Shown here: positions 1 to 12,121 of the stretch, in pieces
Layout of the letters: each line of letters opens with the position of its first letter
How positions within the stretch are numbered: position 1 is the first letter of the stretch
Source: a virus
Taxonomy: Duplodnaviria; Heunggongvirae; Uroviricota; Caudoviricetes
IMG/VR virus record: IMGVR_UViG_2703719355_000018
Strand: one strand, 5' to 3'
Length of the DNA stretch: 13,131 nucleotides
Program-made: the position numbers and the translations under genes
Notes under the pieces: generated by a model
Told to the model about the DNA's origin: nothing
The model's input: only the letters and a program-made list of their open reading frames with translations
The model's database searches: none

Positions 1-1260
1 ATGGCAAAGCTGACAGATATCCAAATCAAGTCATGGATTAAGGCAGGAGAGCGCTTCGAGGGGCGCTCTGACGGCAACGGGCTATACCTTCGCTATCGAG
101 CGGGGGATAAAGTACCTGTATGGCGTTTTCGATATCAGTTCGCTGGGAAATCACGGGTAATGCTTATTGGATCTTATAGCGAAATATCCCTTTCCAAAGC
201 ACGGGAAATAGCCAAGGAATTATCCGCACGTGTAGCCCTGGGCTTCGATGTCGCCGGGGAAAAGAAAGCGCGAAAAGCGGCTGCTATAGAAAAGATGGAG
301 CGGGAGAAAAACGCGCTTCGTGTGTCAGAGCTAGCAACCGAGTATTTCGAACGGCAGATTTTGGGACGCTGGAAACATCCCGATCTTCTGCGCCGGAGAA
401 TCGATAAGGATATCAACCCACATATTGGCAACATGAAGATAGAGGACGTAAAACCCCGTCATATTGATGCGATGCTACAGAGCGTTGTTGATCGTGGCGC
501 TCCAACCGTAGCTAATGACGTTCTGCGCTGGACTAAACGCATATTCGATTATGCTATCAAGCGTCATGCACTGGAATTAAACCCAGCTGGAGCATTTGAT
601 CTGTCAGACGCTGGCGGGCAGGAAAGTAGCCGTATGCGCTGGCTGACCCGTGAAGAACTTATACGTTTTTTCCAAGCTATGCGCACTGCAAAAGGATTCA
701 GCCGCGAGAACGAGCTGACCATGAAGCTAATCCTTTGCCTGTGTTGTCGCAAAATGGAGCTGTGCGGTGCTCAGTGGGATGAATTCGACCTTGATGAAGC
801 AGTGTGGCATCTACCAGCAGAACGCGTTAAAAACGGCGACGCTATTGATATACCACTACCTCCACCTGCGGTTGGTTGGTTGAGAGAGCTTCGCACTATC
901 GCGGGCAGTGGGAGTAAATGGGTTCTCCCCGCGCGGAAGATGCAACACCGCATGATTCCCCACATTCAGGAAAGCACACTCCCCGTGGCGCTGGCAAAAG
1001 TACGCCGCGAAATGCCAGAAGTACCAAACTTCACAATTCACGATTTCAGACGTACCGCCCGCACCCATTTAGCGGCGTTGGGTGTCGATCCCGTAGTCGC
1101 AGAACGTTGCCTGAATCACCGCATTAAAGGCGTTGAGGGTATCTACAACCGCCACCAGTACTTTGAAGAACGACGGGCAGCCCTGGAACTGTGGGCGGGG
1201 CTTCTGGTTTCGCTTGAACGAGGGGAAAACTACAATGTTATTCCTTTATCTAAAATATAA
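1..1260 (+). CDS. int: Tyrosine recombinase / integrase, P4 family (419 aa)
   Basis: ORF begins at window position 1. N-terminal arm-binding-like region (GNGLYLRYRAGDKVPVWRFRY) and C-terminal catalytic region with HDFRRTARTH and YNRHQY typical of P4-type integrases. Confidence 0.93.
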   Translation: MAKLTDIQIKSWIKAGERFEGRSDGNGLYLRYRAGDKVPVWRFRYQFAGKSRVMLIGSYSEISLSKAREIAKELSARVALGFDVAGEKKARKAAAIEKMEREKNALRVSELATEYFERQILGRWKHPDLLRRRIDKDINPHIGNMKIEDVKPRHIDAMLQSVVDRGAPTVANDVLRWTKRIFDYAIKRHALELNPAGAFDLSDAGGQESSRMRWLTREELIRFFQAMRTAKGFSRENELTMKLILCLCCRKMELCGAQWDEFDLDEAVWHLPAERVKNGDAIDIPLPPPAVGWLRELRTIAGSGSKWVLPARKMQHRMIPHIQESTLPVALAKVRREMPEVPNFTIHDFRRTARTHLAALGVDPVVAERCLNHRIKGVEGIYNRHQYFEERRAALELWAGLLVSLERGENYNVIPLSKI

Positions 1261-1276
1261 AAGTTTTGTTTGAAGG

Positions 1277-1379
1277 TATTCACCCTATTCACCTTTTTAA
1301 TTAACTTCATGATTTTAAATAATAAAAAAGGGTGAATACTTACAGTAAAACTAATCACCTTAGTATTCACCTGTTCACC
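1277..1379. repeat. Iteron cluster: TATTCACC at 1277-1284, 1286-1293 and 1364-1371, inverted copy GGTGAATA at 1331-1338, TGTTCACC at 1372-1379 (crr-like)
   Basis: Five copies of the octamer read directly in 100 bp of AT-rich intergenic DNA. From memory, TGTTCACC is the P4 type I iteron bound by the alpha protein at ori and crr. Confidence 0.6.
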
Positions 1380-1452
1380 TTCTAAAGCTGCTGTGGCTGC
1401 TCCCCTTGCCCGAAAACACGCCAGCCACCAGCGTTAAAAAATACAAAAATCA

Positions 1453-1476
1453 TCATCGTCCAGATCTGGACGATGA
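1453..1476. repeat. Perfect 24-bp palindrome TCATCGTCCAGATCTGGACGATGA
   Basis: Exact reverse-complement symmetry read directly; lies in the int-to-cargo intergenic region. Confidence 0.8.
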
Positions 1477-1679
1477 CGCCAGCACTCACCCTACAAAACA
1501 ACCTAACTTATTGATTTCAAAAGTAGAGAAAATCTGCTTTATGCCACTAGCTCGCACCCGTCCCCAAAAAGAAAAAGCCCGCGCTGGAGACGCACGGGCC
1601 TTTGGGTACCGATAACCATGTTTGGAATCAGCTCATTGAGTTCTGACCTCAATTTGCATGTTATCACAAGAAAAACACA

Positions 1680-1720
1680 TTGCAATAATTGCAACAACGA
1701 ATATTATCATTGCGTATAAT
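1680..1720 (+). promoter_or_regulatory. Putative promoter/operator of the plus-strand cargo operon: 15-bp palindrome TTGCAATAATTGCAA (1680-1694) and -10 TATAAT (1715-1720)
   Basis: Perfect palindrome and consensus -10 hexamer about 40 bp upstream of the 1761 start codon; the -35 is weak. Confidence 0.4.
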
Positions 1721-1760
1721 GAAACATAAATATCCGATAGAACATACTGAGGTCTGACCG

Positions 1761-2312
1761 ATGAAAGATATTACAAACATCGCAGTGACTGGCGAAGATG
1801 GCGTGGTGACGTATGCCGACGGCAGTAAAGAGGAGTTCCAGTGCAGCGGAACCGTTGCGACCATCATTGCAAGTCTTGCAACGACACTCGAGAAAGAACG
1901 CAAAATGCGCATCGCCACCGGCGACCGCCTGCGCCGCATGTACACCCGCGACAGTGATATGATTTCCCGCGGTTTGAATGGCACGTCTGCTACTTCCACG
2001 GCACCGACAGCAATGAATGCTGAGTTCATGCGTCTGGTACGTGCCGTAGCGCCGAAATACGATTCAGCACTGCCCGACGCCGACCCGCGCATCGTTGCTC
2101 TCGATGTGCTGCGCTACGCCCCTGCTGAGGCGTTCAGCGCCGTACACCCTACCCCAATGTCAGAAATCCAGCTGGATCAGGCTATCGATATACTCGAGCA
2201 GGTTGGCGACTACATGAAAGCAAACAATATCGCTCCGAAAATAATTTCTACAGGAGACGCAATCCGCAGCATCAATGCTGACAACGCCACCTTCTGGGGC
2301 AAAAAACACTAA
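1761..2312 (+). CDS. Hypothetical protein (183 aa)
   Basis: Long ORF with GAGG Shine-Dalgarno 8 nt upstream; first gene after the promoter-like region; no family recognised. Confidence 0.6.
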   Translation: MKDITNIAVTGEDGVVTYADGSKEEFQCSGTVATIIASLATTLEKERKMRIATGDRLRRMYTRDSDMISRGLNGTSATSTAPTAMNAEFMRLVRAVAPKYDSALPDADPRIVALDVLRYAPAEAFSAVHPTPMSEIQLDQAIDILEQVGDYMKANNIAPKIISTGDAIRSINADNATFWGKKH

Positions 2313-2318
2313 AGAGAT

Positions 2319-2513
2319 ATGAGCATGCCTATCTATGACCCGAAATTAGCCGCAGGCAACCCACAGCGCGCCCACCGCCCGATGCTGACCCGTCAGGATC
2401 TTGAAGCGGCAAAGGCACGCAATAACTTCGATCGCCAGAGTCGCAACCTGCAGCAACTCAACGAATCAAATGCACGGTTCTGGAGTGAACAGAATGAGAA
2501 AGCCAAACGTTAA
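2319..2513 (+). CDS. Small hypothetical protein (64 aa)
   Basis: Starts 6 nt after the stop of the upstream gene, same strand; weak RBS; alternative start at 2325. Confidence 0.4.
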   Translation: MSMPIYDPKLAAGNPQRAHRPMLTRQDLEAAKARNNFDRQSRNLQQLNESNARFWSEQNEKAKR

Positions 2514-2670
2514 GCCGGTCCTGCTGTCCGCCGAGCAGATGCAGGCCATACGCAACATTCAGGAACGTGAACGCCAGCGCTCCAATCTCGGCGTCGCTCC
2601 CACCGTTCACCAGATTGCCCGCGGCCTCATGGCTAAGGCTCTGGCCTCACTGGCAAGCGAGGGCGTGTAA
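2494..2670 (+). CDS. Small hypothetical protein (58 aa), possibly ribbon-helix-helix-like DNA-binding
   Basis: GGAG RBS 8 nt upstream of the ATG at 2494; overlaps the previous stop by 20 nt and its own stop overlaps the next start (TAATG). The 2401 start in the ORF track is rejected. Confidence 0.45.
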   Translation: MRKPNVKPVLLSAEQMQAIRNIQERERQRSNLGVAPTVHQIARGLMAKALASLASEGV

Positions 2671-3341
2671 TGGGCGCCATTCACCAGATATATGAGCAGG
2701 AAATGTTCTATAACTGGATAGGCGATGGTAAACGATGTGTAGCATTCCACGAAGCGGGCCATGCAGTAGCCGCATGGCTTATTCGCTTAGATATGCAGGT
2801 TATCGCCATTATGGATGAATCCGGCTACGTTGCTGGCGAACATGTACATGAAGCCCAGTGTTTGGGCATTGTTAAACACAGCATAATCCACAGCCACGAT
2901 CTCAGGCGTTTGCGGGAGAGTAAATCTGGTGTAGTTGGGCACGATGGCAAAGTTATCCCTTTCATACGCTACTACGCGGAAGGTATAAAGCGCGATGCAA
3001 CAAAGGCCGCTTTTGTAGCCCTCGCTGGACCAGTAAGCGAAGCCCTTTACGAAAATAACGAAATTTTCAATAAAAAGTATTCACTCCCTCACCGCTATGA
3101 CATGGCTAACGTAAATGACATGCTCGATTTAATATGTGCCACGGATAAGCAAATTAACAGGAAGTTAATGCTTTCTAAACTTGTTGAAAAGACCAAATTC
3201 CTCATGACTCAATACTGGCCGGAAGTAGGAAAAATAGCGCATTTGCTTGAGCGGGATAACATTGTTAATGGGCGCGATGTTAGCTCGCTAATCGGCCTCA
3301 ACGTCATTGACCGGGCAACGCCATTTTTGCTGGAGGAATAA
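2670..3341 (+). CDS. Predicted zinc metallopeptidase, standalone FtsH/M41-like HEAGH motif (223 aa)
   Basis: VAFHEAGHAVAAWL closely resembles the FtsH zinc-binding segment, with a downstream ALAGPVSEALY segment; no AAA ATPase domain; GAGGG RBS; start overlaps upstream stop. Confidence 0.7.
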   Translation: MGAIHQIYEQEMFYNWIGDGKRCVAFHEAGHAVAAWLIRLDMQVIAIMDESGYVAGEHVHEAQCLGIVKHSIIHSHDLRRLRESKSGVVGHDGKVIPFIRYYAEGIKRDATKAAFVALAGPVSEALYENNEIFNKKYSLPHRYDMANVNDMLDLICATDKQINRKLMLSKLVEKTKFLMTQYWPEVGKIAHLLERDNIVNGRDVSSLIGLNVIDRATPFLLEE

Positions 3342-3417
3342 CCCCTGCCCGAACTCATTCGACGATTTATTCCTCGGCGGGTAAGCTATACCGGTCTACC
3401 TAACTGCGAGCACAAGG

Positions 3418-4476
3418 ATGATGAATAATTTAATCAATCGCATTGCTTTAACCTTTCTAGCGTTAGTACTCACAGGCTGCACTGCGGGGAAAATCGATCC
3501 CGCAAAAGCGTTAACACAAATGCATATCGTCAAAAGTGATGACTATAAGAAGCGCCCCGGCTGGCCTGCGTTAGTTCGTCTGGGTACTGACGATTGTGAG
3601 ACATACAAAAGTGGCGGCGGTAGCCTCTTTAAGTGGGACGGGCTGACGTGCAACGACAAAAGCATTATCCTGGCGGTTAATAGCAAACCACAGACCATTC
3701 CAGTGTTCTACGCTGCTTACCATGAATACGGGAGCTATGGGGTCGGGGAACTATCCAATTTTGACAATAGCACCCGAACAGGTGAGGAAGCCTCGAAGAT
3801 TCTGGTTAACCTGACCACAGCATTGAACAATCCGGCAAAAGTTGACGCTATCTATGCTGACTATGAAAAGGATCGTTGGAGCATGGGACTTGGTACAGTC
3901 AACGAAAGCGATTTTAAAAAGAGCCTGGCTACTTTTGCTCAGGAACGGGATAAGCTCGCCTCTGAATACCATAGATTACGTGACGCAAACCAAAAGAGAT
4001 ACCTAGCTGAACGGGACGAACGAATCAAACGTGAGAAAGAAGAGGCCATGGCCTCTGAAAAAACGATTGATCTCGTGTTATGGCAGAATCCAACAGTTGA
4101 GCAACAGATGGTTGTTGACGCTCTGCACACTATTAAATTCACAATAAGAAACGATGGCGTGGCATACGCTAACGGTCGCCGATTTATGTCAATTGCCGGG
4201 CTGGAATATCTCAGGAATAGCCTAGCTCTGAGTATGGAGTCATGTTCAGACGCTGGAGCATATGTTGGTGATACGGCATTAAATCGCGCATGTATTCAGG
4301 GCTTGGCGAGGAACATTGTTGAGTGGGGGAAAACCGCCAACGACCGTTCTATTTCAGACAGAGCATGGAACGCAGCCGCAATGGATGGCAGCATTAACTA
4401 CAACCCAATCAAGTATGAAATCCTGTTTTCACATTGGGCAGGAATGGCCCGTGTCTACTCTGCTCGTGGATATTAA
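3418..4476 (+). CDS. Predicted lipoprotein of unknown function (352 aa)
   Basis: N-terminal signal peptide ending in lipobox LTGC (MMNNLINRIALTFLALVLTGC); AAGGA RBS; followed by an intrinsic terminator. Confidence 0.7.
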   Translation: MMNNLINRIALTFLALVLTGCTAGKIDPAKALTQMHIVKSDDYKKRPGWPALVRLGTDDCETYKSGGGSLFKWDGLTCNDKSIILAVNSKPQTIPVFYAAYHEYGSYGVGELSNFDNSTRTGEEASKILVNLTTALNNPAKVDAIYADYEKDRWSMGLGTVNESDFKKSLATFAQERDKLASEYHRLRDANQKRYLAERDERIKREKEEAMASEKTIDLVLWQNPTVEQQMVVDALHTIKFTIRNDGVAYANGRRFMSIAGLEYLRNSLALSMESCSDAGAYVGDTALNRACIQGLARNIVEWGKTANDRSISDRAWNAAAMDGSINYNPIKYEILFSHWAGMARVYSARGY

Positions 4477-4526
4477 ACATTGCGCTTCGAACTGATAAAT
4501 TTAAGCTTAATCAGTACATTACTGTT

Positions 4527-4552
4527 AGCCCGCATTTTAGCGGGCTTTCTTT
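4527..4552 (+). terminator. Rho-independent terminator after the lipoprotein gene
   Basis: Stem AGCCCGC/GCGGGCT with 6-nt loop, followed by TTCTTT. Confidence 0.6.
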
Positions 4553-4618
4553 AGTTGAGCTTTGTACAAGATGTAAATTTACATCCTGATTATCCAGTGC
4601 GCCGTAAAAGCTGGCAAT

Positions 4619-5731
4619 CTATTTAACTAAACGTAAATGTGACGGGCGTATCCCCGATTCCTGGGTACTCGATTTTCCACCATTGATAGCTTCCATAAAG
4701 AAGCTGTTACTGAAAGTAAGTGCACTCACTTCGTCCGCTGGTAACCTCAACTGCTCGAGAATATCTCCCCTTTTAACGCCTTTGCTGCGTAGGGCTGAAA
4801 ACACTTTATCCAGCACTAATGACTTTTCACGTTCAGCAATCCCTTGAGGCTCACTCGTACGATATCCACGGCGAGCAAGTTCTATCGATAGCTGTCGATA
4901 ATGCCATTCGGTAGATAAACCGACATCAAACGTACGGCGCACCAAAGCCGCCAATGATACCCGCCAGTTCTTTTTTAACGAGATGAGTAGATCAAGCGAT
5001 GGCATTCTTGGCACTAAAGCTAAAATACTACGCTCAGGCATCAAAAAGGCCGATGCGAATCGATCTGCATCCTGCTCAGCTTGGCGGCCGTTGTTAGTTG
5101 AATGTTTATGGAGAACCAAGTGCCCCAGTTCATGAGCTGCATCGAATCGACTACGCTCCGGCGTTTTCATTGTATTCAAAAGCACAAAAGGTTTTTCATC
5201 CATCCAGAACGAAAAGGCGTCTACTTCAATACAATTTTCCGCGAGAGAGAACACACGGACCCCATTAGCTTCAAGAAGATGGACCATGTTAGAGATGGAT
5301 AATTCACCTATCCCCCAACTTTCTCTAACCACGCGAGCAGCTCGCTCAGGCTCAGAATAACCATCGAAACTACAATCAGGTACATTAGGTTTAGGAAGCT
5401 TAAACTGCCCGTCAATCCAAGCTGATAGCTCTTGCGCGAGCTTTCCGGCTCCGAGTGCTGAGTCCCTTTTCTGTGCCGTCAACTTTGTCATTGCACGGAA
5501 ACTAACGGCTTCTGGCGACAGAGTAGGTACATCCCTGTCGAAGAAGAACTCAATCGGATAGCCCAGAACAGCAGAAATCCGTTCCATGGTATCGCTGGCT
5601 ATGGCATCAAAAATCCCTGCTTTCTCGTAATTCGAAATCGTCTTACTAGTCAATTCTGTAGCTTCAGCTAAAGCTCTTTGTGTCAGGCCTCTCCGTTCTC
5701 TGGCTATACGTAAACGCTCTGAATTAAACAT
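4619..5731 (-). CDS. Fused XRE-family HTH / ImmA-IrrE (COG2856) zinc metallopeptidase regulator (370 aa)
   Basis: N-terminal HTH (LRIARERRGLTQRALAEATELTSKTISNYE); HExxH as HELGHLVLH, followed by the family-typical FASAFLMPE segment. Confidence 0.85.
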   Translation of the reverse strand: MFNSERLRIARERRGLTQRALAEATELTSKTISNYEKAGIFDAIASDTMERISAVLGYPIEFFFDRDVPTLSPEAVSFRAMTKLTAQKRDSALGAGKLAQELSAWIDGQFKLPKPNVPDCSFDGYSEPERAARVVRESWGIGELSISNMVHLLEANGVRVFSLAENCIEVDAFSFWMDEKPFVLLNTMKTPERSRFDAAHELGHLVLHKHSTNNGRQAEQDADRFASAFLMPERSILALVPRMPSLDLLISLKKNWRVSLAALVRRTFDVGLSTEWHYRQLSIELARRGYRTSEPQGIAEREKSLVLDKVFSALRSKGVKRGDILEQLRLPADEVSALTFSNSFFMEAINGGKSSTQESGIRPSHLRLVK

Positions 5732-5740
5732 GGTGCATAT

Positions 5741-6460
5741 TTAGCCTGTTTTTAAAATGTCGAGATCGATATCCGGTGTAAACTGCGGTACATCACCGTT
5801 CTGAACAATAGGGTCAGGTTGATGAGGAGCAATAATTAAACGTGTGGAGAAGGCATTAACTACATTCTTGTTATTGTATGAAATCGGGCGTGAAAGCTCA
5901 GCTCGGATCCCCACGCGCTCATCCCCGTCAATTTCATAAAAATCGTAAAGTAAAAACCATAAGTCCAGTCCGATTTTATTCGGTAGCAGTGGTATAACAT
6001 CACCTTCCGGCATGTCTAAATCCAGCTTAAGCTGGCTATCATCCAGGATAAGCTCACCCTGACCCGGGGTGTTATTATGGATTAACCCCATCAGCTCACA
6101 AGTAAAATCACCTTTCTTCATGCGAGACTCAGGAAATCCATGAACCAAACCTGTCTGATCACACCCCCGGCAGAGGTAAAGGGCAACTTTATCACTTACA
6201 GTCAGTTCAACATTTCGCAGAGACAGACGTTTGTAGCCTTTCGGAGCCAGAATGTCGCGGGCTGCACTCACCCCCTCACCATAGAAATATTGCCCACGTG
6301 AGGTCTTGGGGTGATTCTGAGTCGTCGAATAACGACCAGACAAGCCACGCTCAAGAATACGCCTGAGATCACTTTGGCTCAGATTCAGGGACTGCAGGTA
6401 GGATTCAACATCGTCAGGATCTGCCAAAACAATGGTTTTTGCGAGATTATGAGAGTACAT
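5741..6460 (-). CDS. Hypothetical protein (239 aa), first gene of a two-gene operon with the HTH-ImmA regulator; candidate effector/toxin
   Basis: AAGAGG RBS 8 nt upstream of the ATG; stop lies 9 nt before the downstream start; no family recognised. Confidence 0.65.
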   Translation of the reverse strand: MYSHNLAKTIVLADPDDVESYLQSLNLSQSDLRRILERGLSGRYSTTQNHPKTSRGQYFYGEGVSAARDILAPKGYKRLSLRNVELTVSDKVALYLCRGCDQTGLVHGFPESRMKKGDFTCELMGLIHNNTPGQGELILDDSQLKLDLDMPEGDVIPLLPNKIGLDLWFLLYDFYEIDGDERVGIRAELSRPISYNNKNVVNAFSTRLIIAPHQPDPIVQNGDVPQFTPDIDLDILKTG

Positions 6461-6489
6461 CGGAAAAGCCTCTTATATATTTTCTATTT

Positions 6490-6518
6490 TTTATACCTCA
6501 TTTGAGGTTTAAAAACAA
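6490..6518 (-). promoter_or_regulatory. Sigma70-like promoter for the minus-strand operon with an embedded palindromic operator
   Basis: On the minus strand: -35 TTGTTT (6513-6518), 17-nt spacer, -10 TATAAA (6490-6495); 14-bp palindrome ACCTCA-TT-TGAGGT (6495-6508) fills the spacer. Confidence 0.5.
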
Positions 6519-6526
6519 GAAAATCA

Positions 6527-6542
6527 CTGTATAAAATCTCAG
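6527..6542. promoter_or_regulatory. LexA-like box CTGTATAAAATCTCAG (CTG-N10-CAG) in the divergent intergenic region
   Basis: Left half matches the LexA consensus CTGTATAT; right half keeps only CAG. Confidence 0.3.
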
Positions 6543-6666
6543 AGATAATCGACAGATTAGAGAGTATTATCCATATTGAGGCTATCCCGACGGGGAGAAA
6601 AGCGACTACGCCTTGCCGCCTGCCTCCCCCATTATCTCAAGGCGGTGACGTGTAAGGCGAACGTGC

Positions 6667-7546: not shown

Positions 7547-7584
7547 TGCGATTACCTTCTCACTCAATAGCAGGTAATCGCATG
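7547..7584 (+). promoter_or_regulatory. Stem-loop covering the alpA ribosome-binding site and start codon
   Basis: 10-bp inverted repeat TGCGATTACC (7547-7556) / GGTAATCGCA (7573-7582), 16-nt loop; the 3-prime arm contains the AGGT SD-like motif and the A of the ATG. Confidence 0.5.
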
Positions 7585-7794
7585 AAATCGCAAACTTTCA
7601 CCTTTCCCACCAATGGCAACGCACGAGCCAAACAAGTGGCGCACTATCTTGGAGTGCATATCAGCACCGTATGGCGCTATGCAAAACGTCCTGATTTTCC
7701 AAAACCCCACCAGTTAACCGACGGCGTGACCGTCTTTGACGCCGCAGCTATTCGCCAATGGAACAAGCAAAAAACCGGGGGTGAGAATGCTTAA
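7582..7794 (+). CDS. alpA: AlpA-family transcriptional regulator / excisionase-like protein (70 aa)
   Basis: VAHYLGVHISTVWRYAKRPDFPKP matches the AlpA/phage-excisionase HTH signature; start taken at the internal ATG at 7582 rather than 7546. Confidence 0.85.
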   Translation: MKSQTFTFPTNGNARAKQVAHYLGVHISTVWRYAKRPDFPKPHQLTDGVTVFDAAAIRQWNKQKTGGENA

Positions 7795-9040: not shown

Positions 9041-9261
9041 TGCCACGCAAACATCGCTCATCAAGCAACCTGATCAAATTAATGGAACGCCAGAAAGGTA
9101 TAGGGCGCGACGATATCCAGATCGCAGATAATCGCCCTACATTCATGCCGTACGAGCCGAACGGAACCTACGCTACAAACCGCCATACCCGCCGTATGCT
9201 ACGCAAGCTCCACGGCATCCAGGCAAAAAGAATGTGTGATCTGAAAGGAGGTCAGAAATGA
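9040..9261 (+). CDS. Small basic hypothetical protein (73 aa)
   Basis: GAGGGAGG RBS; start overlaps the previous stop (TAATG); stop overlaps the primase start (ATGA). Confidence 0.55.
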   Translation: MPRKHRSSSNLIKLMERQKGIGRDDIQIADNRPTFMPYEPNGTYATNRHTRRMLRKLHGIQAKRMCDLKGGQK

Positions 9262-11672
9262 GTGGATTCGATCACCTGATGGAGCAGGGGCAGAAACGCA
9301 CCCCTGCTCGTTTTACTGCAAATAGCTTTTCTGACCTGTGCAACGCTATTCTATCGCATCGTGTGCAAATTTCCATCACACAGGAAATGACGGATGAAGA
9401 ACGGCGCAAAGAAAAGCAGAAACTGTACTGGTTCTCGGCAACTACCCAGCAGGACGGGCAGCGACGTAAACCCGAAAACATGGCACCGTGTGCTTTCGGT
9501 ATGCTGGACATTGACGGCAGCACTCCCGGTGCAATCACAGCACTTGTACAGGTGTTCCGGCGATACTCAATGCTGGTGTACCAGACGGCCAGCTATACGG
9601 CGGATGAACCTCGTCTGCGTATTGTGTGCGAGCTTTCCCGAGCGGTTGAATCTGACTACCGCCGAGCGACAGGCGAATCCATAGAAACTTTGTTGATGCA
9701 GGAGGCTGGATTCTCATTCGCCAGCCTGGCGGATAAGAAAGCACGCTGGGAGAACGGCAGCGATTATGTTGTCTTTGACCGCAATGTATACGGCGCTCAA
9801 AGCTATTGCTACTGTCCACACACTGGAGCGAAAGCCCAGAATTACGCGGGCGCGGTAATCGACGTAGGGGCGTTACCGGAACCCGCCCAGCCACCAGCGA
9901 AGGCGGCCAAAAGCAAGGCAAAGAAACAGCGCCAGCGTGACGCCGCGGCGGTAATAGATGCTGATTTTGACGATCTGAGCGCCGGACCGGATAACTTCCT
10001 TATCGCCGACCTGCGCAGCGCACTCTGGTTTCCCTCCATGCTGCAAAAGGCATGGGACAATGGGGCGTGGATTGAGCAGGGCTACCGCCTTGCATCTCTC
10101 AAAGGCACCGATTTTGAGGACGACGCGCGGCAACTGTGGGTCGAGTGGTCATTGACCGCAGCGGATGGCTGGCCTGATGAAGAACTTGATGAAGTCGCGG
10201 CACAACGCTGGAATGGTCTCGCCCCTGACAAAACCAGCTATAAAGCTATTTTTACTGATGCTCAGGCGCAGGGGTGGAATAATCCGGGCAAATGGCGAGC
10301 AAAGGCCGCGTACATTGAGAAAATGGCCCCCAGCACACGCGGTGAACTGCTGGCGCAATATTACGGCAACGTATGCCTGAAAGCTGATGGCAACATGGTT
10401 TATCACTATACCGGGCAGGGGTGGGAGCACATCGCCGATGCCGAGTTGCGCCGCCAGCTTTCGCAGATTTTCAAAGATAACGGGGTCCCCTTTACACCGT
10501 ACGAGGTTAAAAGCGCGATTGAGGCTATGGGAATGCTTCTGCCTTTAATAGGAGAAACTCCTCGTAACCTGATTGGCTTTGCCAACGGCGTTTATGATCT
10601 CGAGGCGCAGCGATTCCGCCCCCACTGCCCAGACGATTGGCTGACCAGCCATAACGGCGTTGAATACACGCAGCCGGTTAAAGGCGAAACCCTGAAAAAC
10701 AATGCCCCAAACTTCTGGCGCTGGCTGCATCATTCCGCAGGGGGCGACTTCGACAAAATGGAGAGAATCAAAGCCGCTCTGTATATGGTGCTGGCAAACC
10801 GCTACGACTGGCAACTGTTCATCGAGGTTACCGGTGCTGGTGGCAGTGGTAAAAGCGTGTTCACGGGTATTGCACGTATGCTGACGGGCGAACTACACGC
10901 CACCAGCGGCACAATGGAGGACATGGACACCGCGCGCGAACGCGCATCTTTTGTCGGAAAAAGCCTGATCACCCTACCCGACCAAGCAACATATACGGGT
11001 TCCGGGCCGGGTATCAAGGCTATAACGGGCGGCGACGTGGTAAGGATCGACCCAAAGCACGAAAAGCCATTCCATACGGTTATTCGCGCCGTTGTCATCG
11101 CAACAAACAACGAACCTATGCGTTTCACCGAACGACAAGGCGGGATATCGCGGCGCCGGGTTATTTTCCCGTTTAACCATGAAGTGCCGGAGGCGGAACG
11201 TGATCCCCATCTGCTCGATAAAATTAAAGCCGAACTGCCGGTAATCGTCCGTGGTCTGCTGATTGACTTCGAACAGCCAGGCAAAGCCAAATCGCTACTT
11301 ATCGCGCAGCGTGATTCAGCGGAAGCGCTGCAGGTGAAGAACGATAACGACCCGATGTATGGCTTTTGCTCTTACCTGCTAGGTTTGCCGAATCCCGAGG
11401 GCATGTACATGGGCGATGGGCGCATGGCGCGAGAGCCACGCATCTACCTCTATCATGCTTATCTGGCCTATCTGGAAGCCTACGGTTATCAGAGAACCCC
11501 CACCCTACCGAAGTTCAGCGGAGATTTACGGGACACGCTCAAAGCCTTTGGTATTACTCTGGACAGTAAAAAGAGTAAAAAGGGCAAAAGATATAACGTC
11601 AATTTGTCTGACAGGGCACAAGAATGGCTGGGAGAAGACGAACTCTCAGCTGTGCCCGACACATTGCAGTAA
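9258..11672 (+). CDS. DNA primase-helicase, P4 alpha-like phage/plasmid type (804 aa)
   Basis: Walker A GAGGSGKS followed by a P-loop NTPase region (VVIATNNEP) in the C-terminal half; size and position after alpA as in P4-like elements; AGGAGG RBS. Confidence 0.88.
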   Translation: MSGFDHLMEQGQKRTPARFTANSFSDLCNAILSHRVQISITQEMTDEERRKEKQKLYWFSATTQQDGQRRKPENMAPCAFGMLDIDGSTPGAITALVQVFRRYSMLVYQTASYTADEPRLRIVCELSRAVESDYRRATGESIETLLMQEAGFSFASLADKKARWENGSDYVVFDRNVYGAQSYCYCPHTGAKAQNYAGAVIDVGALPEPAQPPAKAAKSKAKKQRQRDAAAVIDADFDDLSAGPDNFLIADLRSALWFPSMLQKAWDNGAWIEQGYRLASLKGTDFEDDARQLWVEWSLTAADGWPDEELDEVAAQRWNGLAPDKTSYKAIFTDAQAQGWNNPGKWRAKAAYIEKMAPSTRGELLAQYYGNVCLKADGNMVYHYTGQGWEHIADAELRRQLSQIFKDNGVPFTPYEVKSAIEAMGMLLPLIGETPRNLIGFANGVYDLEAQRFRPHCPDDWLTSHNGVEYTQPVKGETLKNNAPNFWRWLHHSAGGDFDKMERIKAALYMVLANRYDWQLFIEVTGAGGSGKSVFTGIARMLTGELHATSGTMEDMDTARERASFVGKSLITLPDQATYTGSGPGIKAITGGDVVRIDPKHEKPFHTVIRAVVIATNNEPMRFTERQGGISRRRVIFPFNHEVPEAERDPHLLDKIKAELPVIVRGLLIDFEQPGKAKSLLIAQRDSAEALQVKNDNDPMYGFCSYLLGLPNPEGMYMGDGRMAREPRIYLYHAYLAYLEAYGYQRTPTLPKFSGDLRDTLKAFGITLDSKKSKKGKRYNVNLSDRAQEWLGEDELSAVPDTLQ

Positions 11673-11985: not shown

Positions 11986-12009
11986 TCTTGTACCCAAGAT
12001 TGTACCCAA
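11986..12009. repeat. Tandem direct repeat, two units ending in TTGTACCCAA (11988-11997 and 12000-12009)
   Basis: Read directly in the AT-rich junction between the element and dinD; function unknown (att remnant or binding site). Confidence 0.4.
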
Positions 12010-12121
12010 TAGAAAAAATAGAAAATAAAAACTCAGCAATAGCAGCGATTGGTTACACTACTCAACATTCAGATTCAATTGAGTAACTCGTAACACTAAT
12101 TCTTACTTTTCAGCCTTCACA

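Follow-up and report, generated by a model that had tools for sequence, protein, structure and literature searches.

A predicted unfoldase-free FtsH-type protease and a predicted outer-membrane lipoprotein are separable neighbors in a PICI-type phage satellite of Escherichia coli

The window analyzed here is the whole of a 13,131-nucleotide (nt) stretch of viral DNA (IMG/VR virus record IMGVR_UViG_2703719355_000018, Caudoviricetes), and its subject is two neighboring genes, one for a 223-amino-acid (aa) protein with an FtsH-type zinc motif and one, beginning after a gap of exactly 76 nt between the open reading frames, for a 352-aa predicted lipoprotein. The first is the fourth of five co-oriented genes in a block (1761 to 4476) that is followed by a G+C-rich hairpin and TTCTTT. 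A preliminary description made from these letters alone had called an FtsH-type zinc site without ATPase domain or membrane anchor, a lipoprotein with an LTGC lipobox, and a terminator behind it, and all three calls were borne out. A chromosomal island of E. coli O55:H7 strain DEC5B and nine other complete genomes, inserted between yicC and dinD, matches the window at 99.5% identity. Because of its layout (integrase, int-alpA RNA, AlpA, an Icd-like gene, a P4-family primase, and 19-bp repeats), we assign the window to a Gram-negative phage satellite of the phage-inducible chromosomal island (PICI) type, of about 12 kb. Integrase, AlpA, primase, a size of about 10 to 15 kb, and flanking repeats are all present without a full virion gene set, and the corresponding Gram-negative PICI layout has been described (PMC6739421, PMC10111431).

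The HEAGH motif of the 223-aa protein lies within residues 24 to 37 (VAFHEAGHAVAAWL). Pfam and NCBIfam returned no AAA+ or other second domain, and no hydrophobic segment was found (maximum Kyte-Doolittle 19-residue mean, 1.29); the AAA+ ATPase module and the N-terminal membrane anchor of an FtsH holoenzyme are both missing. The M41-like reading of the preliminary description was supported by a profile of 24 diverse family members, which matched the protease domains of FtsH, YME1, and AFG3L2 with a best E value of 2.9e-13 and aligned to FtsH end to end over the whole domain (profile positions 12 to 199); 21 of the 24 members also matched PF01434. H27, E28, G30, H31, and G120 were invariant in these 24 homologs, and E124 and D144 were at least 90% conserved. 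In an L-INS-i (MAFFT) alignment to the Thermotoga maritima FtsH domain, H27, E28, and H31 paired with H423, E424, and H427, E124 with the Glu of GGRAAEE, and D144 with the third zinc ligand, D500, in a numbering of the zinc ligands that we take to be that of the 2CE7 structure paper. The third-ligand column was Asp in 24 of 25 aligned sequences. A HMMER local register that set D500 opposite the nonconserved D109 was dropped; the MAFFT alignment pairs the conserved motifs.

Relative to FtsH, the family lacks the roughly 37 residues that follow the third-ligand helix, and this protease subfamily carries about 35 residues inserted after the zinc helix. The top 25 PDB matches that Foldseek returned for a low-confidence AlphaFold2 (AF2) model were all FtsH, AFG3L2, YME1, or FtsHi (E of at least 0.079; template modeling [TM] scores, 0.37 to 0.45), and identity to FtsH domains in the structural alignments was 9 to 16%. 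As judged from homology, then, the 223-aa protein is a genuine standalone M41 (FtsH-type) domain that appears to descend from the FtsH protease domain by loss of the AAA+ unfoldase, the membrane anchor, and the ~37-residue segment, and it is probably catalytically active and ATP independent. NCBI already names close homologs "peptidase M41 family protein," so the family assignment itself is not new. The M78-like and Lit-like identities that had also been considered, along with known defense proteins, were ruled out by hidden Markov model (HMM) evidence: PF06114 (M78) did not match the 223-aa protein, whereas it matches the neighboring RmrA, and no PADLOC family matched the protease or the lipoprotein at E values up to 0.1. 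Ratios of nonsynonymous to synonymous substitution rates (dN/dS) of 0.19 to 0.27 for the protease and 0.08 to 0.21 for the lipoprotein indicate purifying selection and hence real genes. Altered alleles were also seen. In the E. coli variant P0024 (66 contigs) the first ~50 residues are replaced and HEAGH is absent, the E2348/69 allele (L003, one of the compared loci that we denote by L numbers; 10414 to 11145) has a recombined C terminus and encodes 243 aa, and the ECONIH5 copy is split by IS5.

Close homologs of the protease are confined to the Enterobacterales. A profile search recovered 281 clusters of short standalone relatives and a second search more than 3,500 relatives, mostly of 150 to 260 aa and mostly with PF01434; the family is equally distant from FtsH across many phyla. 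All sampled relatives lay in mobile-element contexts, the distant ones in other small integrative or phage-like elements, and at every related locus examined the gene was inside an integrase/primase element. The preliminary description had raised two doubts, a missing third zinc ligand and conserved placement outside mobile elements; the ligand is in place and every context found is a mobile element, so neither doubt applies. Neither 50,697 phage records nor 72,556 plasmid records contained the protease. A scan of genome contigs with the protease profile returned a single locus, a full-length FtsH-like gene; since its pattern was HEAGHA, the scan was overwhelmed by genuine FtsH genes.

In canonical elements (L002, L004 to L006, L010 to L021, L027, L029, and L033) the protease gene lies downstream of the primase, and it stands just 3' of the replication genes in E. 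coli EC02 and M9682-C1, in Dickeya, Yersinia, Serratia, Pseudomonas, and Klebsiella, and in eleven IMG/VR contigs. PICI interference and packaging genes are located downstream of the primase (PMC6739421, PMC11773190, PMC10111431), in a region that has been termed the dynamic late zone (PMC10111431). Window-type islands (the window, DEC5B, and E2348/69) are an exception to this position, with the late block directly 3' of the integrase. No constant partner gene accompanied the protease across the loci examined: upstream stood the 58-aa gene described below, a gene for a single-stranded DNA-binding protein (SSB), ProQ/FinO, or a helix-turn-helix (HTH) protein, or nothing, and downstream the lipoprotein gene, a DUF2280 small-terminase-like gene, a 116-aa gene, PerC, or other cargo. 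The protease gene is a recurring member of the region immediately 3' of the satellite primase, in which satellites keep genes for helper hijacking and packaging. Searches of the literature on M41 with satellites, PICIs, or prophages returned nothing relevant, and we found no description of the standalone, unfoldase-free M41 form as a recurrent satellite gene.

The N terminus of the lipoprotein, a predicted signal peptide, reads MMNNLINRIALTFLALVLTG/C, with a hydrophobic core at residues 5 to 23 and the lipobox LVLTG/C-T (the slash precedes the lipobox Cys), which fits the consensus [LVI][ASTVI][GAS]C. Among 31 homologs the lipobox Cys was invariant and residue +2 was never Asp; four further Cys residues (C60, C78, C276, and C292) were also invariant. 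From these features the protein is predicted to be exported, lipidated, disulfide bonded, and sorted to the outer membrane. We found 40 homologs in the Enterobacterales, with 38 to 99% identity and all unnamed, and no relative, by sequence or by fold, whose function is known. Neither this orphan family nor its nonrandom association with the protease was described in the literature that we searched.

Helper-type myoviruses carry a paralog of the lipoprotein between an E217_gp41-like gene and the baseplate genes, without the protease. The paralog at L008 is full length (374 aa, 40% identity). That of L063 and L064, a 296-aa form, agrees in its N-terminal domain (YKKRPGW, FYAAYHEYG, and two Cys) and differs in its C-terminal one, which makes the family modular. 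The phages with these tail-module paralogs are of the type that hosts embedded satellites, and the lipoprotein belongs to a modular moron family that E217-like helper myoviruses and their satellites have in common. Toxin-antitoxin or defense genes neighbor the lipoprotein gene repeatedly (RmrTA in the window, TumE at L026, and YafO at L008). The lipoprotein family is a plausible new superinfection-exclusion family.

Satellites related to the window are integrated in the head-gene cluster of an E217-like prophage, as in E. coli ECONIH5 (L026, 11082 to 24376), and at L013, L014, L029, and L047 the major capsid gene (PF09950) is split into fragments of ~150 and ~190 aa. Insertion in the capsid gene agrees with the helper-embedded PICIs of Tommasini et al. 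2023 (PMC10111431). In embedded satellites the protease gene is directly followed by a DUF2280 small-terminase-like gene of the satellite itself; at L026 this order is found at 21791 to 24376, and at 4750 to 5875 the helper carries a PF18894 "phage metallopeptidase" gene just before its own DUF2280 gene. Homology of the helper PF18894 metallopeptidase to the M41-like protein was ruled out, as no sequence or profile similarity was found, and the shared placement before DUF2280 is best regarded as a positional analogy only.

The region in which the two genes meet in the window appears to be rearranged. Canonical relatives (L004, L027, and L033) have the order int, a roughly 300-aa gene, and AlpA. 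In the window, an extra 5.3 kb separates int from the RNA motif that precedes the window's own 272-aa gene and AlpA. We read this as a rearranged satellite layout, with the late block and cargo (1261 to 6570) placed between int and the int-alpA RNA, and the adjacency of protease and lipoprotein genes falls within a rearranged, cargo-rich region. RmrA and RmrT, next door, likewise place the two genes in a cargo and defense neighborhood.

We surveyed 5,426 complete E. coli genomes and found the protease region in 58 and the lipoprotein in 16, with about 40 of the 58 protease-bearing genomes lacking the lipoprotein. Among the 16, the lipoprotein gene was adjacent to the protease gene in 13 and followed the integrase in 3. 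The lipoprotein is missing from L003, L004, and L014, and in E2348/69 homology breaks between the positions of the two genes. In helper-embedded satellites the lipoprotein gene closely follows int and AlpA, has an upstream region of its own, and is 5.4 to 7.4 kb distant from the protease gene. Allele identities were incongruent both between the window and Dickeya (protease, 26%; lipoprotein, 69%) and between L011 and L015 (protease, 46%; lipoprotein, 88%). These data indicate that the two genes are separable: they are frequent neighbors and do not form an obligate two-part system.

The reading that we favor, with a probability of roughly 0.55, is that these satellite genes, both directed at the helper, are separable and have a hotspot in common. 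For the substrates, the exclusion activity, and any cooperation between protease and lipoprotein, what we infer is as follows. Having no unfoldase, the protease would act in the cytoplasm by site-specific cleavage of a flexible or unfolded part of a specific regulatory or packaging protein of the helper phage, the host, or the satellite; the helper small terminase, repressor, or scaffold are candidate targets, and the satellite would benefit. The lipoprotein would most likely act at the envelope as Cor and Llp do and counter helper-type phages at adsorption or entry, a role suggested by the tail-module paralogs and the toxin-antitoxin and defense neighbors. The two genes would be adjacent because the slot after the protease gene is a cargo hotspot and possibly also because both must match the helper, which could explain their co-transfer without physical cooperation. 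Processing of the lipoprotein by the protease, a role raised in the preliminary description, is unlikely on topological grounds, since the protease is predicted to be cytoplasmic and the lipoprotein exported.

Several findings weigh against this reading. On its own, the protease sequence scores 21.1 bits against Pfam M41, below the threshold of 29.9, and matches at residues 21 to 44 only (the zinc helix), and the AF2 model, built from a shallow alignment, is poor (predicted local distance difference test [pLDDT], 53.9). Decayed copies of the gene exist (P0024, ECONIH5, and the altered C terminus of E2348/69), so it is dispensable for island carriage. The remaining findings concern linkage, which is tighter than simple cargo would give, and they bear on the rival view that protease and lipoprotein are one helper-matched module: the cytoplasmic protease would cleave a helper protein or sense infection, the outer-membrane lipoprotein would block the helper receptor or entry, and selection and exchange would act on the pair, a single swap redirecting the satellite to another helper. 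Each of the 16 E. coli genomes with the lipoprotein gene has it within an island that also bears the protease, and in a sample seeded with the lipoprotein, 19 adequately flanked loci have both genes in one element. Pairwise identities of the two proteins correlate positively (Spearman, 0.43). The two genes stand side by side in at least six divergent satellites, co-oriented with short gaps of 1 to 79 nt, and do so on two unrelated backbones, one with a D5-type and one with a DUF927-type primase, where protease identity goes down to 23 to 29%. A five-gene block, protease and lipoprotein included, has moved between islands with unrelated integrases and primases at 93% nucleotide identity. In the Yersinia satellites L006 (7316 to 9011) and L033 (8169 to 10074), whose backbones are 93 to 97.5% identical, exactly the two-gene stretch is replaced by a divergent pair with 25% and 39% amino acid identity. 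The association of the two genes is therefore nonrandom, and to that extent the pairing proposed in the preliminary description stands; a single system is not supported, given the many protease-bearing satellites without the lipoprotein and the separate zone and upstream region of the lipoprotein in helper-embedded satellites. Against the module also speak the lipoprotein paralogs in phages without the protease, the strong allele discordances, the absence of a PADLOC match, and the fact that the correlation of pairwise identities is not corrected for shared ancestry. We consider the one-module view unlikely, if still worth weighing, and hold the same opinion of its fullest form, a swappable "helper-specificity cassette" in which the unfoldase-free protease would cut a helper protein, the lipoprotein would mask the helper receptor, and exchange of the pair would retarget the satellite.

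A different partner for the protease would be the 58-aa protein encoded just upstream, in a repressor-protease or toxin-antitoxin-like switch modeled on ImmR/ImmA, CapH/CapP, and the adjacent RmrA, in which a small DNA-binding protein would keep late genes repressed, or the protease neutralized, until a signal from a helper or from stress sets off cleavage. The two genes overlap at stop and start codon (TAATG), the same small gene precedes the protease in L002 to L004, L010, and L011, a Pfam Antitox_RHH gene lies immediately 5' of a distant protease homolog in L030, and an HTH_3 gene lies close to a homolog in L022. The 58-aa protein, however, resembles a ribbon-helix-helix protein by its strand-helix-helix pattern only, with zero matches to ribbon-helix-helix or antitoxin models in HMM and PDB searches. 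Its gene is missing from subfamily-B satellites, L012 to L014, and L029, and a captured phage head-tail gene separates it from the protease gene in L015 to L017 and L026. A type II toxin-antitoxin pair would have a recognizable ribbon-helix-helix antitoxin and constant pairing; the 58-aa gene shows neither, and the pairing is missing at many homologous loci. The switch thus strikes us as quite improbable. Still less credible, and in our view very improbable, is that the 223-aa protein is no independent enzyme but a mimic or poison of host FtsH, one that joins the protease ring or titrates substrates and thereby shifts FtsH-controlled decisions such as those set by the stability of lambda CII/CIII. 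FtsH controls lambdoid lysis-lysogeny, and the family's apparent descent from the FtsH protease domain, with the FtsH HEAGHA motif kept, would fit such a role, but the structural alignments put its identity to FtsH domains at just 9 to 16%, its distance from FtsH is the same across many phyla, and its strictly conserved catalytic residues argue for catalysis over mimicry.

The features of the window and the tail-module paralogs of the lipoprotein are collected in Table 1.

Table 1. Coordinates of features in the window and of lipoprotein paralogs at other loci
Feature	Position	Strand	Basis or remark
Tyrosine integrase of the satellite island	1..1260	+	Pfam Arm-DNA-bind_3, Phage_int_M, Phage_integrase; integrase annotation beside yicC in DEC5B
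183-aa protein, first gene of the block	1761..2312	+	No Pfam, PHROG, or PDB match; accompanies the protease in subfamily-A satellites
62-aa protein	2325..2513	+	PGAP annotation in DEC5B; upstream of the protease in L002, L003, L010, L011, L015
58-aa protein	2494..2670	+	Stop overlaps protease start by one base (TAATG), read from sequence
Predicted standalone peptidase M41 (FtsH-type) domain, 223 aa, soluble	2670..3341	+	Profile, PF01434 matches, alignment, AF2 model
Predicted outer-membrane lipoprotein, 352 aa, orphan family	3418..4476	+	
Intrinsic-terminator-like hairpin ending the block	4527..4546	+	7-pair stem (6 G-C), 6-nt loop, then TTCTTT
RmrA (HTH plus M78 peptidase)	4619..5731	-	PADLOC RmrA, E 6e-151; Pfam HTH_3 + Peptidase_M78
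RmrT, partner of RmrA	5741..6460	-	PADLOC RmrT, E 1e-52
int-alpA RNA motif	6575..6642	+	Rfam RF02996, 41.1 bits (gathering score 35.8), E 9e-6
AlpA-type regulator	7582..7794	+	Helix-turn-helix regulator in DEC5B annotation; Pfam Phage_AlpA in homologs of related satellites
P4-family primase/helicase	9258..11672	+	Pfam D5_N, DUF5906, Pox_D5; PGAP "phage/plasmid primase, P4 family"
19-bp direct repeat TTGTACCCAAGACTGTACC, right copy, island flank	11995..12013	+	Left copy between yicC and int in L001
Tail-module lipoprotein paralogs	L008 8001-9125; L063 9986-10876; L064 9899-10789		

Within the block, identification of the 183-aa protein as RppA or RppC was ruled out, there being no PDB match. 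A 197-aa gene stands between the 58-aa gene and the protease gene in L015 to L017 (8704 to 9297) and L026 (21127 to 21720); it is homologous to a gene of the helper head-tail region and looks like a late-gene capture. The RmrA/RmrT pair, a defense or toxin-antitoxin system, lies directly downstream of the lipoprotein gene and convergent to it, and in E2348/69 the same slot is occupied by a different RmrA-like pair (27% identity). E2348/69 also has a retron-like gene of the reverse-transcriptase family between slmA and pyrE (L003, 3884 to 4843), a few kilobases from the island, which is not at that position in DEC5B. The int-alpA RNA motif is 5.3 kb away from the integrase in the window. The 500-nt spacer between int and the block (1261 to 1760) contains two strong minus-strand hairpins with T-runs (1603 to 1573 and 1478 to 1451) and promoter-like sites at 1661 to 1707, and could hold a regulatory RNA or bidirectional terminators.

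How Gram-negative PICI satellites without Rpp exploit or block their helpers is largely unknown, and a conserved, unfoldase-free FtsH-type protease with intact catalytic residues, encoded in the zone of hijacking genes, would be a concrete candidate effector. The lipoprotein would define an orphan envelope family common to temperate myoviruses and the satellites that ride them. Should the two genes prove to cooperate, they would represent a new kind of two-compartment satellite module.

Among known systems, the protease most resembles FtsH/M41 enzymes (T. maritima 2CE7, Aquifex aeolicus, YME1, and AFG3L2): the HEAGH helix, the third-ligand Asp, and the conserved Glu in the GGRAAEE helix are common to both, as is, by prediction, a helical bundle at the C terminus. 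It differs from them in having no AAA+ module, transmembrane helices, or periplasmic domain, in its ~37 deleted and ~35 inserted residues, and in being satellite borne, whereas FtsH is a housekeeping gene. ImmA/IrrE proteins (M78), including RmrA and CapP of the cyclic-oligonucleotide-based antiphage signaling system (CBASS), are likewise small HEXXH zinc proteases on mobile elements that are sometimes preceded by a small putative DNA-binding protein, but they belong to another peptidase family, and the 223-aa protease has no fused or constant HTH partner. The PF18894 protein of the ECONIH5 helper prophage is also encoded by a small metallopeptidase gene directly before a DUF2280 gene; it has no detectable similarity to the protease, and a DUF2280 gene is missing from the island of the window. 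Like the lipoprotein predicted here, T5 Llp, phi80/N15 Cor, and F-plasmid TraT are outer-membrane lipoproteins on a phage or mobile element. The lipoprotein of the window is far larger (~330 mature residues) and shows no sequence or fold similarity to them, and moron placement within or beside phage tail genes is seen for the tail-module paralogs of L008, L063, and L064 and not for the window's gene. Gram-negative PICIs differ from the window, which has no Rpp homolog and whose late block stands between int and the int-alpA RNA instead of behind the primase. What the window has in common with Gram-negative and helper-embedded PICIs (PMC6739421, PMC10111431) is the arrangement of integrase, AlpA, primase, and late zone, and, as in the helper-embedded ones, relatives of the window are inserted within the capsid gene of an E217-like prophage.

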